A stretch of DNA of 64,000 nt from a virus. The notes under the pieces were generated by a model, which saw only the letters and a program-made list of their open reading frames with translations, had not been told where the DNA came from and ran no database searches. The position numbers and the translations under genes are program-made. Below, piece after piece: positions 15,243-49,324 of this stretch. The stretch lies in IMG/VR virus record IMGVR_UViG_3300009788_000088. One strand, given 5' to 3'. Position 1 is the first letter of the stretch. Each line of letters opens with the position of its first letter.

Positions 15243-15253
15243 TATAAATACTT
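15243..15253 (+). promoter_or_regulatory. T4-type late promoter
   Basis: TATAAATACTT heading the only plus-strand operon; TATAAATA is the T4 gp55 consensus. Confidence 0.75.
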
Positions 15254-15288
15254 AAAAGAACTATACTAACCTTATAGGAGACATAGAT

Positions 15289-15459
15289 ATGAAAGCAAGC
15301 TACGAAGAACTGAGAGCCCTTGTTCAGTCTGCCATGGATGGTGATTGGGATAAGGATAAACTCAAGGAGAAGCGTGAAGAAAAACAGGCGAAAAAGAATG
15401 AGCGGAAGTCTGACCTTATTGCTGAAGCAACAGATTTTCTTAGTCGCCAGAAAGATTAA
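15289..15459 (+). CDS. small charged late protein (56 aa, absent from ORF track)
   Basis: AGGAG RBS; MKASYEELRA...LIAE...QKD*. Confidence 0.7.
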   Translation: MKASYEELRALVQSAMDGDWDKDKLKEKREEKQAKKNERKSDLIAEATDFLSRQKD

Positions 15460-15461
15460 TA

Positions 15462-15842
15462 ATGCCTCTACTTTCCGATACCGGTGAAGTTACCGCTTTA
15501 ACTGTATTATTCCGCAAATCTCCTACGGCTCCTGATCCACTGGAAAAACGTATGCCGGATGGGAGCACTGTTGTTCGTAAAAAGGCAATGGGTGGGTCAC
15601 AACAAGTTGCGCTCTATATTACAAACGCTGATCCGGCTGTTACAGTAGACCTTGATGACATCGAAGTCTACGTGTCAGCTACCCAGTCTTGGGTAAGTTT
15701 ACTTGCGGCCCCGGTTACTATTGACGCAGATATCTCAATTCGAAGATTGATCGAAACATATCCTACAGAGACACATGTCCGTATTACTATGGATGGGGCG
15801 TTGTTTGATCATAGAATAGAATTTGCCCCTGTCACCCCGTAA
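15462..15842 (+). CDS. putative virion protein, paralog of next gene
   Basis: SDTGEV..VLFRK..R.PDG..VRK.A.GG.Q shared with 15861..16640. Confidence 0.7.
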   Translation: MPLLSDTGEVTALTVLFRKSPTAPDPLEKRMPDGSTVVRKKAMGGSQQVALYITNADPAVTVDLDDIEVYVSATQSWVSLLAAPVTIDADISIRRLIETYPTETHVRITMDGALFDHRIEFAPVTP

Positions 15843-15860
15843 TATCTGGAGGAAGTAATA

Positions 15861-16640
15861 ATGGCTTTACAGTCTGACACTGGAGAAGTTAACAGAGCCA
15901 TAGTTCTGTTCCGTAAAGGTCAAACCAGACCTCTGGGTGTTGAGCGGCGTGTGCCTGATGGTGCTGGGATTGTTCGGAAAATTGCTCAAGGTGGTAAACA
16001 AGAAATGTTGTTGTATGTTTCAGCAGTTGGGGACGGGGCCATAAACGTTGATGATATTGAGGTTTACGTTGGTCTATTAAGTGGGTGGGTAAGTATACTT
16101 GCCGCCCCGGTTATTGTTGCTATCGATACAACAAAACGTATCCCTGTTGAAACTTATCCTCCTGAAACGTTTGTACGAGTTACTGTAACCAGCGAAATTG
16201 TAACACTTACGGTAGACAATGCCTCCGTTCATGCTGTATTAGATACCCTTACTGGATTAACATCAGGAGCTACAGGAGTTATTGATGCGATTGACGGGAA
16301 CGATATTACCGTTACTGTTACGTCAGGAGTGTTTGAAGACACTGTAACACTTGCGGTTGATGATGCTCTCGGTCATGCTGTATCAGATATCCTTACCGGA
16401 TTAACATCAGGAGCCACAGCAACTATTGATGCGATTAACGTAAATGATATTACCGTGACCGTATTAACCGGAAAGTTTGAAGATGGCGAAACTGTTCAAG
16501 ATGATGATGGTCTTGATACTTCTATCATTCAATCCATTGAAGGTGAGACTGTTCAAGATGATAACGGTCTTGATACTTCTATCATTCAATCCATTGATTT
16601 GGATGCTCACATTGTAGAGTGTGTAGCATATACACCGTAA
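15861..16640 (+). CDS. putative virion protein with nested internal repeats
   Basis: Paralog plus two LTGLTSGAT beta-rich repeats. Confidence 0.7.
   Translation: MALQSDTGEVNRAIVLFRKGQTRPLGVERRVPDGAGIVRKIAQGGKQEMLLYVSAVGDGAINVDDIEVYVGLLSGWVSILAAPVIVAIDTTKRIPVETYPPETFVRVTVTSEIVTLTVDNASVHAVLDTLTGLTSGATGVIDAIDGNDITVTVTSGVFEDTVTLAVDDALGHAVSDILTGLTSGATATIDAINVNDITVTVLTGKFEDGETVQDDDGLDTSIIQSIEGETVQDDNGLDTSIIQSIDLDAHIVECVAYTP
16199..16597 (+). repeat. in-frame tandem repeats: 2x144 bp followed by 2x57 bp
   Basis: tgtaacactt at 16199 and 16343; GETVQDDxGLDTSIIQSI at 16485 and 16542. Confidence 0.9.
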
Positions 16641-16957
16641 TGAGATTCGGGGACGTTCTGGAAGAAACTTGGCCTAAAGTATCCGTCAAATGGTCCACTG
16701 AAGCAAAGTCTGTTTTTCAGGATATGATAGCCGCACTTGATATGAAGGGTGGAGATGTGGTCCATCTCAAAAAAGTAATGAGCAACGCTCTACTCACATA
16801 TAATCCGGATAGGGATATCTTGTCCACGGCTGGGGGAAGTTTAAATAATTGGAGTATCACGAAGGCACGGGAATATATGAGAGGTCTTCTGGCAAACTTC
16901 AATCAAGTATCTGGAAGGGCCGATCTCCAGAAACGTCTTGAAAGGATTTTCGTATGA
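16640..16957 (+). CDS. putative internal head protein (CTS-like MRFGDVLEE)
   Basis: TAATG coupling at 16640; N-terminal tag. Confidence 0.65.
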   Translation: MRFGDVLEETWPKVSVKWSTEAKSVFQDMIAALDMKGGDVVHLKKVMSNALLTYNPDRDILSTAGGSLNNWSITKAREYMRGLLANFNQVSGRADLQKRLERIFV

Positions 16958-17226
16958 AGAGATTCCAAGAATATATAACAGAGGTTGTGGTTTCTGTTAA
17001 GATTTCCTCTTATTCCAAAGGTAAAGGTAAAGGCTCCATTATTCTGGACGGGAAACAATATAAGGGAGTATGGAAAAACGGGAAACTTATATCCATCCTG
17101 AGAGGAATGAAAAAATCTCCAGTAAAACAATCCGGTGATTATTATACAGCATTAACAGAAGATGGGGATGTAAAATTTGCTGTAAAAGAATTGGAAGATT
17201 CTATCAGTAAACTGATTAACAAATAA
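16954..17226 (+). CDS. putative internal head protein (CTS-like MKRFQEYITE)
   Basis: Close match to T4 IPII/IPIII MKTYQEFIAE; small and basic. Confidence 0.7.
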   Translation: MKRFQEYITEVVVSVKISSYSKGKGKGSIILDGKQYKGVWKNGKLISILRGMKKSPVKQSGDYYTALTEDGDVKFAVKELEDSISKLINK

Positions 17227-17237
17227 GGGAGACAGTT

Positions 17238-17531
17238 ATGCGGAGCGTAAAAGATATCCAAAATCTTATTACTGAGGCGAATGAAAAGGGTGCCAAGGAA
17301 AAGATTATCGAAGAAGCGGTTGATATAAAGGGCGTTATCAAAAGCCTCAGCGATACCGATTTCAAGGGTGACAATAAAGAGCAGATGAAAGGCGTACAAC
17401 TTCTCAAGGGGTTGGCCGCCAGTGATGATCCTCTGGCCACCAAATTCATGGACAAGCTTTCCGATGCTTTCACCTCTGTAGCCAATGCTGTTTCCGGCGG
17501 CGGTGATGATAAGGGTGATAACAAGGAGTAG
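17238..17531 (+). CDS. putative internal/core head protein
   Basis: MRSVKDIQNLITE; additional IEE site. Confidence 0.6.
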   Translation: MRSVKDIQNLITEANEKGAKEKIIEEAVDIKGVIKSLSDTDFKGDNKEQMKGVQLLKGLAASDDPLATKFMDKLSDAFTSVANAVSGGGDDKGDNKE

Positions 17532-17533
17532 CC

Positions 17534-17836
17534 ATGAAATTCGAAAAAGTCCTGAACGAAATCGTCAGCGGTCCATCCCTCTTGAAGAAAAAACTGGGGG
17601 AATATCTGTCATGGTATCTCAAGAACCGAGGGAATTATGATGCCTTTGATGCCATGAGGGATATCACAGATATTTTCCAAGATATTTTTGGAGCCCTTGT
17701 ATCCCCTAAACAACAGGAGGCCATTCTTGGCGCTCTGGAAGGACTGAACAACACTGCCTCATCCAAACAAGGACATTTAAAGATGTATTATGATGCTGTG
17801 TGGAACGCTTACAAGACGGGTCAAGTAAAACTATAA
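17534..17836 (+). CDS. putative internal head protein (MKFEKVLNE)
   Basis: N-terminal tag, AAGGAG RBS. Confidence 0.65.
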   Translation: MKFEKVLNEIVSGPSLLKKKLGEYLSWYLKNRGNYDAFDAMRDITDIFQDIFGALVSPKQQEAILGALEGLNNTASSKQGHLKMYYDAVWNAYKTGQVKL

Positions 17837-17839
17837 TTC

Positions 17840-17868
17840 TTGACAACCTCCTAATAAATGGTTATAGT
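17840..17868 (+). promoter_or_regulatory. early promoter inside late operon
   Basis: TTGACA-N17(..GGT)-TATAGT. Confidence 0.75.
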
Positions 17869-17898
17869 GAATTTGAGATGATAACCAAGGAGGTAGTC

Positions 17899-18231
17899 AT
17901 GAAGAATACATTGATTGAAAAGTCTGCTTATTTTAACAAAACAGTAAAGGAAATTGCAGAACTTACTGATATCAACCATCACACTGAAGCTCTTATAGAA
18001 GGAGCCCGGTTGATGAGAGTAACTACCCAATCCGGATGGATAGATGTTAGCTACAGACTATACACCAATTACGAGCGGATTTTCAAAAACATTGCTGACA
18101 TTGCTGACATTGAGGGGTATATGCCCCCAGAACTTAGCAAGTATTGTGCCATAGTACGGGAAACATTTTTTACCAAAGTAAAAGAAGACCTTGACCCGGT
18201 TCAGTATAAAAAATTTCACGGGGCATATTAA
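17899..18231 (+). CDS. hypothetical protein with own early promoter
   Basis: AAGGAGGT RBS then MKNTLIE. Confidence 0.7.
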   Translation: MKNTLIEKSAYFNKTVKEIAELTDINHHTEALIEGARLMRVTTQSGWIDVSYRLYTNYERIFKNIADIADIEGYMPPELSKYCAIVRETFFTKVKEDLDPVQYKKFHGAY

Positions 18232-18289
18232 TGGAATGGTTAACGGACCTCATGTACAAAATTCATCTATGGGCTTGCAGGAGACGCCA

Positions 18290-18574
18290 ATGAAATTCAA
18301 AAACACCCTAACAGAAAAATCATCTGGTTGGGAAATTATTGATAAGATAGCCCGTGCCGTGACTGGAAAGAAATTCATGGACGTTGGGGAGGCGTTGAAA
18401 TCTCTTGGGTTCAAAGAGAGTAAAGATTACTTTCTTAACACAGAACCCCCCGCACCCCCTGTCTGGTTACTCACTTATAAGGGCGGAAAGATTGCTATTG
18501 TCAACAAAAAGAACGCTGAGAAGCCGGAGAAGATTATTGGTGAGTTGGCCATTGGCTGGGTGGGAAGGCACTAA
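18290..18574 (+). CDS. putative internal head protein (MKFKNTLTE)
   Basis: AGGAG RBS, ATG 18290, N-terminal tag. Confidence 0.65.
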   Translation: MKFKNTLTEKSSGWEIIDKIARAVTGKKFMDVGEALKSLGFKESKDYFLNTEPPAPPVWLLTYKGGKIAIVNKKNAEKPEKIIGELAIGWVGRH

Positions 18575-19092
18575 TGAGTTTTGGAAAACTCTACACAGAA
18601 GCTACACGGTGGCATATGCCTTACGTTCCTCCCAAGCGTTTAGCACGGGTTCAGGACTGGGTGTATCAGGAAATACTGGACAAGGCCGCAGTCATACGGT
18701 ACGGTAAATCTTTACGAGAAATGTCCCCGTCTGACGCCACCAACGCCATCGAAACCATGACCCAAACCCCTATCAAAAGCGCCTTAAAGAAAAAGGGTAA
18801 CCGGGCACTGGAAAAGGCTCTGGAGCAAACATACTTCCCGAACGTTCCTATTAAAGAAATTATCAAAGCTCTTCATGGGGTGGGGCTGGTTATCCTACAG
18901 GAAGACAGCACAGAGTGGGAGGGATTCGTCACTGGCAAGAGTGGGAAAATGTTGGTTCCTCTGGCCCCGACAGAAACAGAGACTAACTATAAAGGCGTGA
19001 AATTCTTCACCCCATTCACCAATACTCAGTTCGTGATGACATGGCATAAGATGGACTCCGGAACATTTGAAGTCATTGCCTACGTATCATAG
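18574..19092 (+). CDS. putative internal head protein (MSFGKLYTE)
   Basis: TAATG coupling; tag variant. Confidence 0.6.
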   Translation: MSFGKLYTEATRWHMPYVPPKRLARVQDWVYQEILDKAAVIRYGKSLREMSPSDATNAIETMTQTPIKSALKKKGNRALEKALEQTYFPNVPIKEIIKALHGVGLVILQEDSTEWEGFVTGKSGKMLVPLAPTETETNYKGVKFFTPFTNTQFVMTWHKMDSGTFEVIAYVS

Positions 19093-19105
19093 AAGGGGGT
19101 TATAG

Positions 19106-19327
19106 ATGAAATTTGAAGATGTGTTACTCAACGAATTTACCGCAGGGTCTTACATTATTCTTAAAAAAGAAATCAATGGTGTAAAACCCGCACGTTATAA
19201 AATTACCGGCAAACAGGGAGCCAACACCGTTCTTAGTGGTGGTGGAAAAATACCGACCAGCGTATTGTCGAAAGCAATGAAAGACGGTGATGCTTATTTA
19301 AGTGGGTCTGGTTCCGGCGGAATGTAA
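19106..19327 (+). CDS. putative internal head protein (MKFEDVLLNE)
   Basis: N-terminal tag; small, basic. Confidence 0.65.
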   Translation: MKFEDVLLNEFTAGSYIILKKEINGVKPARYKITGKQGANTVLSGGGKIPTSVLSKAMKDGDAYLSGSGSGGM

Positions 19328-28237: not shown

Positions 28238-28921
28238 TCACATGTCGTGAATGTAATGAAGTCCCAAAAAAGCAAAAGCCATTCTGGAGATGACGCCTTG
28301 TGGCTGGGTCACACCTTCAAAGACGAACGGAACCCCCGGCTTTTTACGAAGCTGGCTATACGCCTGAGCGATCTTTCCGAATGCGGCGGTGGAGGCAAAC
28401 TTTGTCAATCTTCCACTTCGTGTTAGGAAATACATATTCTCCCCATCTCCCAGAATGGCGGCGTCTTGTTTGTACTTCTTAACGAACTTGGTGATGGTCT
28501 CCACGAATTCTATATAAGTCATATCTGCCGGTATGGGTACGAAAAATGATTCCTCCGTAACATCCTGAACGATACCATCACTGACAGCCTTGGCCAGAGG
28601 TAAACGCTGACCGTCCGGTGTCACGATGACCAACGAATTCCCGGACCCCGTGACGGCGAAACCATCAGGTGCTTCTTGCCAGTGCCCAATAAGGAGGTGT
28701 GGACCCATACCCATACCATTTAAGGCGCTCAGAAGCTCTCTGTTACGCTTTTGGTTGGTCTTCAGGTCCAACTGCCCCCTGAACGCTGTAAGGATAGCAA
28801 ACGGCTTCTCCATGAGTCTCCAGACTCTTGATAAGCTGGACTCATCGATATATCCCAACCACGAACGGGATTCTTCAATGTCTTCTGATCCAAAGACTTT
28901 TCTTGCCTCTGCGAAATTCAT
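28238..28921 (-). CDS. late protein of the T4-like SSLSR / DUF3293-like family, candidate head cargo
   Basis: IDE-SSLSR, ILTAFR, RNRELL, EESFFV, YKQDA; late promoter directly upstream. Confidence 0.6.
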   Translation of the reverse strand: MNFAEARKVFGSEDIEESRSWLGYIDESSLSRVWRLMEKPFAILTAFRGQLDLKTNQKRNRELLSALNGMGMGPHLLIGHWQEAPDGFAVTGSGNSLVIVTPDGQRLPLAKAVSDGIVQDVTEESFFVPIPADMTYIEFVETITKFVKKYKQDAAILGDGENMYFLTRSGRLTKFASTAAFGKIAQAYSQLRKKPGVPFVFEGVTQPQGVISRMAFAFLGLHYIHDM

Positions 28922-46911: not shown

Positions 46912-47325
46912 TTAATTCTTAAGAGACTTGACCACTTCTGGGTCTGTTATGTGATAAGCCGGAACATGTTTCCAACCTTTATAATCAGCCATGGCTATTC
47001 TGTGCCAGCCATCAATGACCATACTTCCACCTAAATCTGGATCATCTACTAAAATGACCGGGGCGGAAAATTTTGTTTTTTCCGCTTTTTCGGGGTCCAC
47101 TCCTATACTCATCAAATTACCCATTTTATCCCCAGTCTTCTTCCAATCTTTAATCCGTATGGATAACCATTTCACCAAATCTTTCGTGGGTATGTTTGTT
47201 ATCTTAACCTTATCACGATTAGCACGAATCCAACGTTTGGCTTTATCAACATCATACCGAATCAACCCGAACTTAAAAGTTTCGTATTCAAGAAGAATTT
47301 CTCTGAATTCAGCAAATTTTACCAT
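46912..47325 (-). CDS. ParB/Srx-like domain protein with CTS-like tag
   Basis: PVILV...VIDGWHR..A; MVKFAEFREILLE. Confidence 0.65.
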   Translation of the reverse strand: MVKFAEFREILLEYETFKFGLIRYDVDKAKRWIRANRDKVKITNIPTKDLVKWLSIRIKDWKKTGDKMGNLMSIGVDPEKAEKTKFSAPVILVDDPDLGGSMVIDGWHRIAMADYKGWKHVPAYHITDPEVVKSLKN

Positions 47326-47708
47326 TTGACTGTCAAAACTTTCCCGCCACCCTTAAAGTCTCGCTTCTTCATGATGGTCTTGACAATCATGTCCATGTCA
47401 CCTTCAAGAGCATCTTTCTTATAGGTAACCGGAAGATTCAATTTAGTCCGCACGTCCTTGATGACCGCTTCCCATTCCTTTTTGGTAAGCTTATCTTTAT
47501 ACCGGGCGATGAATCGCTTGAACACATCAAGGATTTCATCAGCCGTGACACCACCCTCACGTTGGCCTGTCAAAAGCCTGTCTTTAACAACATGCCGGGT
47601 GAACACAATATCAACCCCGAAGGGCTCAAACATCTTATCCAGCTTCTGTTCAAGACTCCGGACTTCCCCCATCGACATTTCATTTACGAAGGTGTTAAAA
47701 CGTTTCAT
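47319..47708 (-). CDS. RelE/BECR-like protein with CTS-like tag
   Basis: MKRFNTFVNE; IVFTRH..DR...VKTIM. Confidence 0.45.
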   Translation of the reverse strand: MKRFNTFVNEMSMGEVRSLEQKLDKMFEPFGVDIVFTRHVVKDRLLTGQREGGVTADEILDVFKRFIARYKDKLTKKEWEAVIKDVRTKLNLPVTYKKDALEGDMDMIVKTIMKKRDFKGGGKVLTVKW

Positions 47709-48619
47709 GGGGCGATACTCCATCTCTTATATATTTTTTCAATAAAATCTTCAACGTTTGTGGTTTTTAAATGTCTCATCGCCTTAACCAGAGAATCAGA
47801 ACCGCCACGGGCTTTATAATTATGTATATCATTCTCCAACCCTCTTTTAATATCTATCCGATCTCTCTCATAATTATAACCACGTTGTAGGGTGTCCAAC
47901 AATTCACGCCCATCTTTACTTAACCTTGTCACATTAGCAACCGGACTATGTGCTAATTCTATCCACGGATCGAACGGGTTTCTTCTTTTCCTTCCGGCAT
48001 ATATATTAATACTTAATGGTTCTGTTGACCCAAACAGTCCACTCTTTAGTGGATTGAACGTTTTTCTAATATTACGGGTTCTCCAGTTCCTATCATTATC
48101 ATAAAAATATATAGGAATTTTTTTCTGTTTTGCGATGGTCAAAATATTTCGTATTGATTTCAAGTCTTGTTGATGTATATATTTTTGATCTTCCAAATCA
48201 AAAAACACATGAATGGCTTTAATGTACGATATTGCGTTTGGGATTGTTGAACTTGTACTAAACAAACGATCCTCTGCTTCAGATGCTTGTCTCCCAAATT
48301 CCGGACCCCAATAATCCACAGTCTTTCCTGAATACCTTTGTCCTAACTTTTTTCCATCCAACTCAAAATATAAACCAGTGTAGCCGATACTCTCAAAATA
48401 ACGTGCGTTTGGTGTTCTCGCTGTTGAGAAATAATATATCTTATTTTTGCTTTTCCTTGATGTATCGTCTGATGGTGTTCCCAAACTTAGTGTCAACATA
48501 AATTTGTTCGATTTTAATATACTTTCCGCACTACCAGTGTTAGTTATATGGAATAGAGTATCAGACAGTCCTTCATCAATTAGTGTCTTGTCGTTTATGA
48601 AAGTATTGAATCGTTTCAT
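47705..48619 (-). CDS. ADP-ribosyltransferase-like protein with CTS-like tag
   Basis: MKRFNTFIND.TLIDE; LFHIT, YFSTAR, EAEDR. Confidence 0.55.
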   Translation of the reverse strand: MKRFNTFINDKTLIDEGLSDTLFHITNTGSAESILKSNKFMLTLSLGTPSDDTSRKSKNKIYYFSTARTPNARYFESIGYTGLYFELDGKKLGQRYSGKTVDYWGPEFGRQASEAEDRLFSTSSTIPNAISYIKAIHVFFDLEDQKYIHQQDLKSIRNILTIAKQKKIPIYFYDNDRNWRTRNIRKTFNPLKSGLFGSTEPLSINIYAGRKRRNPFDPWIELAHSPVANVTRLSKDGRELLDTLQRGYNYERDRIDIKRGLENDIHNYKARGGSDSLVKAMRHLKTTNVEDFIEKIYKRWSIAP

Positions 48620-49246: not shown

Positions 49247-49287
49247 AGTAAACCCCCTTTCGCATAATAAATACTCATGGTATTTTA

Positions 49288-49296
49288 AGTATTTAT
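49288..49296 (-). promoter_or_regulatory. late promoter upstream of regA and cargo genes
   Basis: ATAAATACT(T); inverted copy at 49267-49275. Confidence 0.55.
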
Positions 49297-49324
49297 CATG
49301 GAAAGGGGGTATGGAGTGCTTTGA

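Follow-up and report, generated by a model that had tools for sequence, protein, structure and literature searches.

A 64,000-nucleotide stretch of viral DNA (IMG/VR virus record IMGVR_UViG_3300009788_000088; hereafter the window) carries a series of small genes whose products begin with a short N-terminal tag equivalent to the capsid-targeting sequence (CTS) of phage T4. The window is the replication region of a T4-like phage, with genes for a family B DNA polymerase, gp32, UvsX, clamp loader, primase, NrdA, RegA, and an NAD-dependent ligase. The best matches of the DNA polymerase among GenBank phages are cyanomyophages at only ∼34% identity, and identity to any cultured T4-like phage is likewise ∼34%. 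The lineage is therefore deep-branching. Nearly all genes of the window lie on the minus strand, and positions 15243–19327 form a single plus-strand island. This island consists of a promoter, three untagged genes for proteins of 56, 126, and 259 amino acids (aa), and then eight tightly packed small genes (Table 1). From 16640 onward, seven of the eight consecutive small genes are clearly tagged, and the gene at 17899 (MKNTLIE) is a borderline eighth.

Gene starts obtained by codon and ribosome-binding-site scoring agree with independent Joint Genome Institute (JGI) calls on a copy of the locus, which give products of 56, 126, 259, 105, 90, 97, 100, 110, 94, 172, and 73 aa. An 83-kb IMG/VR contig matches the window with 7 base differences in 64 kb, and this contig is identical across a 13-kb overlap to a 147-kb ENA metagenome contig, which was explored by six protein look-ups. 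Genome-wide tag counts were taken over 144 kb of phage sequence. A subsurface metagenome is the only run listed as containing the island, no RNA data set being listed for it, and the phage is uncultured.

The original prediction held that proteins with unrelated bodies share one N-terminal tag. The seven core tags of the island, which start at 16640, 16954, 17238, 17534, 18290, 18574, and 19106, are all present, and the JGI calls place their starts at the same positions. The minus-strand tags at 47325, 47708, and 48619 are likewise confirmed. The bodies behind the tags are indeed dissimilar, with no pairwise BLASTP similarity between mature parts at E<0.05. Three weaker cases of the prediction (15289, 28921, and 59841) were rejected because the tag profile described below gives them no score.

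Table 1. Features of the plus-strand island and of the minus-strand cluster (window coordinates; L002 is the related contig used for comparison)
Feature	Position	Strand	Remarks
Late promoter TATAAATACTTAAAA	15243..15257	+	Exact match; 46 nt before first island gene; conserved in L002
56-aa protein, untagged	15289..15459	+	Ribosome-binding site; conserved in L002; tag profile does not score
126-aa all-beta protein, untagged	15462..15842	+	Paralogue of the 259-aa gene downstream
259-aa paralogue of the 126-aa protein, untagged	15861..16640	+	∼135-aa repeat insertion; alignment A1
Tagged putative cargo, 105 aa, MRFGDVLEE then body	16640..16957	+	Mature isoelectric point (pI) 9.8; L002 orthologue starts MKFGTVLEE
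Tagged putative cargo, 90 aa, MKRFQEYITE then body	16954..17226	+	Best match to T4 IPII/III tag
97-aa protein, 13-residue tag MRSVKDIQNLITE, acidic body	17238..17531	+	Mature pI 4.8; low-complexity tail; possibly core-like
Tagged putative cargo, 100 aa, MKFEKVLNE then body	17534..17836	+	L002 orthologue starts MKFHKVLTE
110-aa cassette, borderline tag MKNTLIE	17899..18231	+	Absent from L002
Tagged putative cargo, 94 aa, MKFKNTLTE then body	18290..18574	+	Body absent from L002
Tagged putative cargo, 172 aa, MSFGKLYTE then body	18574..19092	+	L002 counterpart tag MNFGKLYTE
Tagged putative cargo, 73 aa, MKFEDVLLNE then body	19106..19327	+	Different gene in L002 at this place
Tagged putative cargo, 137 aa, MVKFAEFREILLE then body	46912..47325	-	DGWHR motif present
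Tagged putative cargo, 129 aa, MKRFNTFVNE then body	47319..47708	-	ATGA overlap couples it to upstream gene
304-aa tagged protein, MKRFNTFINDKTLIDE then body	47705..48619	-	Predicted ADP-ribosyltransferase fold and helical C-terminal domain
Late-promoter variant GATAAATACTTAAAAT, one-base change	49281..49297	-	Upstream of regA, within inverted repeat

The frequency of the tag was evaluated in three ways. A motif defined a priori from T4 mutagenesis (aromatic-x-x-hydrophobic-aliphatic-x-Glu, beginning at residue 3 or 4) occurs at 5 of the 182 predicted N-termini, whereas its frequency in the rest of the proteome predicts 0.31 (P=1.7e-5). When the same 182 N-termini are ranked by BLOSUM similarity to the tag of T4 internal proteins (IP) II and III, gene 16954 comes first and five island genes are among the top 15 (P=7e-4). 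Finally, a 9-residue profile was built from 11 tags as seeds and applied in leave-one-out fashion with a threshold at the 99.9th percentile of internal 9-mers. This profile places 20 of 268 N-termini above threshold, where 0.8 are expected, and recovers all 11 seeds.

The profile built from the tags of this phage also transfers to T4 (NC_000866; 76.5 kb, 221 candidate starts), where IPIII and IPII occupy ranks 2 and 3. Rank 1 is gene 61.1 (start 19130, minus strand), which encodes the 54-aa hypothetical protein gp61.1 and begins MKTFKEFIKE. gp61.1 may be an unrecognized CTS-bearing protein of T4. In the same genome, ipII and ipIII start with MKTYQEFIAE and ipI with MKTFKEF...ITE. Mutagenesis of the T4 CTS has assigned residues 4 and 7 to targeting and residues 8 and 10 to processing (PMC9026906), and these are the positions that are conserved in the tags of this phage.

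Codon choice at the conserved tag residues varies: Arg appears as AGA, CGA, or CGT, Phe as TTC or TTT, and Glu as GAA or GAG. In their nucleotides, pairs of tags have an identity of only 0.56, and the sequences ahead of the starts are unrelated. Given these varied codons, unrelated upstream regions, and dissimilar bodies, the common element is therefore a short protein module placed on unrelated bodies. The core tags all end in [L/I/V/Y]-x-E, and two classes can be distinguished: a 9- to 10-residue form like that of T4 IPII/III, and a 13-residue form ending in L-I-x-E that is common to 17238 and to proteins of the core region. In the tag of 48619, position 10 is Asp and LIDE comes later, at residue 16, an arrangement that can be compared with the cut of T4 IPI at ITE-19.

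The mature parts are predominantly basic. Among 21 of them, 15 have a pI>9, compared with 29% of the proteome (P=3.5e-5), and T4-type internal proteins have been described as basic (PMC9026906). The payloads of the island have no Pfam, PHROG, PDB, or Atlas match. For the 172-aa protein (18574), which has no match in Pfam, PHROG, or the Protein Atlas, three homologues only were found among 5.8 billion proteins, and none is known beyond the lineage.

The machinery expected to handle such tags is encoded by the same phage. The 147-kb contig carries a gp21 homologue (Peptidase_S77; L015:8195–8827), a gp22 scaffold protein (T4_CASP), and a major capsid protein (Gp23). The propeptide junction of this gp23, FLAE/SSLSGD (the slash marks the junction), aligns with FLTE/AEIGGD of T4 gp23, which is an established cleavage site. 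In an alignment with T4 gp21, the GELxHP and S(S/T)RG motifs of the gp21 homologue are conserved, and LITE-9 near its N-terminus is aligned to LIE-9 of T4.

Promoter sequences link the island to the head genes. The 15-mer at 15243, TATAAATACTTAAAA, also precedes gp5, gp21, and gp22, and gp23 has the one-base variant TATAAATACTTTAAAA. The shorter sequence ATAAATACTT occurs 19 times in the 144 kb, always intergenic or at a gene edge and usually 25–55 nt before a start codon. Late promoters had been proposed for all of the tagged genes, and this held in part. The copy at 15243 is perfect and the one at 49288 is a one-base variant with regA between it and the tagged genes, whereas 28938 and 60365 are good promoter matches behind which the genes are not convincingly tagged. 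One of these genes (28238–28921, minus strand) encodes a 227-aa protein with an S-adenosylmethionine (SAM) lyase domain (Pfam PF23780, E=1.5e-8) and lies 25 nt behind the late-promoter-like sequence CATAAATACTTT. In T3, a SAM lyase is known to act against restriction.

Additional tags occur elsewhere in the genome. Directly behind another promoter copy beyond the window is a further cluster whose products begin MKFNEAV..., MKFYNAVELNE, and MRFSEFIKE, the last of these having a very basic body. Others lie in the head and neck module. There, the 13-residue type of tag is found as MRTFNDLHELITE on a 91-aa protein between gp21 and gp22, and as MRTLKDINKLIQE on an acidic 240-aa protein after gp23. 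MKSFIEYIEE, MKRFLQYIAE, and MKRFGEFIVE lie between gp15 and terminase, and KRFKQFIIE is located near the start of a protein adjoining the portal gene.

Two of these regions have additional peculiarities. At L015:16642–18179, ∼75 kb past the end of the window, two HExxH paralogues are located between the gp15 and terminase genes, the second of which starts with MKSFIEYIEE; these could be packaged metalloproteases. The portal region (L010:3191–3682, minus strand, and L011) has an order unlike that of T4, namely gp2, two small genes, portal, a 59-aa gene, and sheath, and one of the two small genes carries KRFKQFIIE. The genes for gp21, gp22, and gp23 lie ∼30 kb from this region, after gp6.

On the minus strand, the starts at 48619, 47708, and 47325 belong to three translationally coupled tagged genes located downstream of regA. 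The 129-aa protein (47708) matches PHROGs of no assigned function, and the 137-aa protein (47325) has no homologues other than itself. A ParB-like nuclease was considered for the latter on the strength of its DGWHR motif and one Atlas cluster (ParB_N in 63% of members), but no Pfam match appears even at E=10, and this assignment is no more than a lead. An inverted repeat at 49266–49297 (ATAAATACT...AGTATTTAT) puts the late-promoter variant motif on both strands, and a transcript hairpin is possible there. Of the seven bases at which the window and the IMG/VR contig differ, two (47313 and 47322) fall within the 13-codon tag of gene 47325. The resulting variants, MVKFAEF and MIKFTEF, differ at residues 2 and 5 and keep the Phe residues; one of the two differences makes the upstream gene one codon shorter.

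Exchange of genes was examined in a relative. Megablast of the island against GenBank phages revealed no close DNA relatives, and IMG/VR yielded no relatives when queried with the ligase, with the 172-aa protein, or with alignment A1 (the 126- and 259-aa paralogues). The comparison therefore rests on a single 12-kb Logan contig, L002, with ∼75% DNA identity, which is the sole informative relative. L002 keeps the island promoter and most of the genes together with their tags. At gene 16954, DNA homology covers the start codon and ten tag codons and ends at 16983, beyond which the body is different. The bodies of 17899 and 18290 are missing, and a deletion joins the sequence ahead of 18290 to the 18574 gene, with the junction at start codon and tag. 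In place of the last island gene (19106), L002 has a gene starting MLRFQQYNEA. Thus, turnover of genes in the island occurs at the tag boundary.

A near-consensus sigma-70-type promoter (TTGACA-17-TATAGT, 11/12) is present at 17840–17868, in the 62-nt gap upstream of the 17899 cassette. The inserted gene, which is absent from L002, may have brought its own early promoter.

The untagged genes at the head of the island include two paralogues of 126 and 259 aa, between which the N-terminus (MPLLSDTGEV...LFRK) and the C-terminus (..YTP) are strongly conserved. The ∼135-aa insertion of the 259-aa protein consists of two tandem repeat pairs and is lacking in L002; a weak match of these repeats to a PHROG 'structural protein' family is the sole Pfam or PHROG hit of the island. 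For the 126-aa protein, an AlphaFold2 (AF2) model gives a beta sandwich of low confidence, for which CBM35-like matches reach Z ∼8. This candidate assignment is no more than a lead, since the model is poor (predicted local distance difference test score, pLDDT, of 61) and Z values near 8 are in a range that the tool calls common.

The 304-aa protein at 48619 is the tagged protein for which a fold can be proposed. Its AF2 model, computed with 81 sequences, has a mean pLDDT of 90, and residues 1–12, which make up the tag, are disordered and extend outside the fold. Residues 14–184 match the ADP-ribosyltransferase (ART) fold, with Z 10.6 and a root mean square deviation of 2.5 Å over 112 residues to the ART domain of yeast Tpt1; values of Z 8.2–9.2 are obtained with DarT. 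Among the 50 structure matches listed, almost all belong to the ADP-ribosyltransferase superfamily (Tpt1/KptA, DarT, bacterial ART toxins, and PARPs). These comparisons indicate that the modeled protein has an ART fold. Residues H24, S65, E114, E116, and R118 are invariant or nearly so among the 81 homologues. The protein is a putative ART-type enzyme, in which the conserved H, S, and ExE(D)R residues may be catalytic and activity may depend on NAD.

This family comprises 1579 representative clusters and is without a Pfam model. Its ART-fold domain is also found inside polyvalent proteins of 1300–2600 aa (P0010, P0011, P0038, P0072), where its neighbors are ART-PolyVal, NUDIX, GNAT, and PcfJ domains. 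In 76 of 97 stand-alone homologues, an [LIVMF]-x-E sequence lies just ahead of the first strand, and 11 have a leader of the T4 form. A homologue in a KVP40-like Vibrio phage starts with MKKFNEFANELAE.

T4 Alt offers a parallel for such a protein. Alt is a packaged ADP-ribosyltransferase that is injected with the DNA, and it is about twice the size of the 304-aa protein. The likeness lies in an ART fold behind a putative cleavable N-terminal leader, which would make the 304-aa protein a pre-made NAD-dependent enzyme delivered with the genome. However, the 304-aa protein is nearest in structure to the Tpt1/KptA and DarT branch, not to cholera-toxin-like R-S-E enzymes, and has conserved H, S, and ExE(D)R residues. 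The likeness to Alt would be one of function.

The tagged genes probably encode T4-type internal head proteins. A CTS and gp21 interpretation had been part of the original prediction, and it is favored by the match to the T4 CTS, the presence of gp21, gp22, and gp23 with an L-x-E junction, the late promoter, the basic and unrelated payloads, and the exchange at tag boundaries. By this reading, the tagged genes would be transcribed late from TATAAATACTT promoters, as suggested by promoter sequence identity with the structural genes. Each product would carry a propeptide of one of two forms, either 9–10 residues reading M-K/R-(x)-F-x-x-[F/Y/V/L]-[I/L/V]-x-E, or 13–16 residues ending in L-I-x-E or a similar site. 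While the prohead assembles, the propeptide would dock its protein onto the scaffolding core of gp22, and a gp21-type serine protease would then cut after the Glu of the tag. The mature parts, mostly small and basic, would remain alongside the DNA in the head and pass with it into the next host cell. If the mature parts do enter the host together with the DNA, then the payloads would be pre-made factors that act before any phage gene expression, possibly against host defenses, and one of them would be an ART-fold enzyme functionally comparable to T4 Alt.

Several observations weigh against assigning the tagged proteins to this class. Packaging, cleavage, and injection are deduced from sequence alone for a phage that is uncultured, and the comparison is limited to one informative relative. 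The genes of the minus-strand cluster point in the early direction, and regA separates them from a promoter variant that differs by one base. Individual tags also deviate from the T4 pattern: the tag of 18290 has Thr at the equivalent of residue 7, that of 18574 has Tyr at the equivalent of residue 8, and that of 19106 is one residue longer. Internal L/I/V-x-E sites are not depleted in the tagged set of the window (15 observed compared with 14.5 by composition shuffle). Depletion is not significant for the whole tagged set either, and only a post hoc 'basic' subset gives a marginal P=0.017, which we do not use as support. Finally, no payload of the island has a recognizable fold or family, and calling these payloads effectors is a guess.

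One alternative is that the tagged proteins enter the prohead as accessories of the scaffold or core, like gp67 and gp68 of T4, and would be degraded by the protease and expelled rather than delivered as effectors. The absence of site depletion noted above would fit this explanation. In addition, two other proteins carry the tag type of 17238, one of 91 aa encoded between gp21 and gp22 and an acidic one of 240 aa encoded after gp23, the second of which has seven internal L/I/V-x-E sites, and the mature part of 17238 is itself acidic with a low-complexity tail. Proteins with a 13-residue tag and an acidic body, such as 17238, may be closer in character to prohead-core proteins than to effectors. 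As an account of the whole set, however, a core function is unlikely. Most payloads are basic (pI 9–10) with zero to three internal sites, as in the T4 internal proteins, and one is predicted to be a well-folded ART-type protein that would be purposeless as scaffold. Moreover, cassette turnover between close relatives suits accessory host-interaction genes better than assembly parts.

It is quite improbable that the N-termini are instead remnants of duplicated 5′ gene ends, or a signal acting in the mRNA (for translation initiation or as a RegA-type operator), with no role in targeting. Some neighboring genes do have near-identical leaders, such as MKRFNTF in 48619 and 47708 and KNTLxEKS in 17899 and 18290, and regA is located directly upstream of the minus-strand cluster. 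Nonetheless, the codons of the conserved residues differ (for Arg, AGA versus CGA or CGT), the tags have only 56% nucleotide identity, and their ribosome-binding regions are unrelated. The motif also fits, residue by residue, the T4 positions that act at the protein level, and at least six separate loci contain it, the head module among them. Chance, acting through common 'MK' starts and selective choice of start codons, is excluded by the statistics: MK is a common N-terminal dipeptide and relaxed patterns catch false positives such as primase and gp5, but the profile finds 20 N-termini where 0.8 are expected and recovers every seed when left out, the hits are physically clustered, independent gene calls agree on the starts, and the profile retrieves the internal proteins of T4.

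For an assignment of the tagged proteins to the T4-type internal head proteins, the closest comparison is with IPI, IPII, and IPIII (Mullaney and Black 1996, as reviewed in PMC9026906 and PMC3012670). The features in common are a propeptide of 10–19 residues with an aromatic residue at position 4, a hydrophobic residue at position 7, and an I/L-x-E end; a genome that encodes gp21, gp22, and gp23; and mature parts that are small, mostly basic, and mutually unrelated. The mature bodies in this phage have no sequence relation to IPI, IPII, or IPIII. Such homology is not required for membership in the class, because the tag is all that the known internal proteins themselves have in common (PMC3012670).

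The phage differs from T4 in the extent of the system. T4 has three internal proteins and Alt, whereas this phage has ∼10 tagged genes in the window and ∼20 in 144 kb, spread over six or more loci and with two tag lengths side by side. The claim that the tagged genes exceed the three internal proteins of T4 thus holds as a count, with the reservation that some, carrying 13-residue tags and acidic bodies, resemble core proteins more than effectors.

In T-even phages, hypervariable IP loci (Repoila et al. 1994; Comeau et al. 2007, as cited in PMC2839356 and PMC3012670) also hold swappable genes that keep the tag, with cassettes replaced, inserted, or deleted and breakpoints at or next to the tag. 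The lineage and gene content are different here, and the breakpoints are at the tag or the start codon. The early-promoter stem-loop elements that flank T-even IP loci were not found, although no systematic search was made. A more distant parallel is seen in phiKZ and SPN3US, whose ejection proteins usually have propeptides of >100 residues with an A/S-x-E motif (PMC5694885). In those phages, head-internal proteins are likewise cut after Glu by a prohead protease related to that of T4, and paralogues have identical N-termini although the bodies diverge. In contrast, the tags of the present phage are T4-sized (9–16 residues) and end in L/I/V-x-E.

The novelty that the original prediction attached to a portable tag on diverse payloads was overstated. 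This arrangement is established in T-even phages, where >30 IP variants are known (PMC2839356, PMC3012670), and a portable CTS on diverse internal proteins in hypervariable loci has been recognized there since 1994–96. Four features of this phage stand out, namely how many tagged genes it has, the conservation of the tag over such an evolutionary distance, the existence of two tag classes, and the candidate ART-fold cargo.

As a tentative generalization, which we consider less likely than not, the T4 CTS might be a conserved portable address across the whole T4 superfamily, even in lineages as distant as the present one. The injected proteins of any such phage could then be listed by a tag profile with no data other than the sequence. 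In the present case, the list would have ∼20 cargo proteins, including members of the Pfam-less ART-fold family (Tpt1/DarT-like, >1500 clusters, and also found in polyvalent proteins), most stand-alone members of which have an L-x-E leader and might be delivered with the genome.

Proteins that are injected with phage DNA act before phage gene expression and are therefore prime candidates for first-line counter-defense. Two examples are known from T4, in which IPI blocks GmrSD and IPIII is required for infection of Escherichia coli ECOR17 (PMC9391042). Because the tag is recognizable at ∼34% polymerase identity, its profile transfers to T4, and one genome can carry ∼20 tagged genes, the tag could be of practical use in searching uncultured T4-like phages for injected effectors. 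The payloads of the island, the predicted ART-fold enzyme, and the HExxH proteins would be concrete effector candidates with which to begin.

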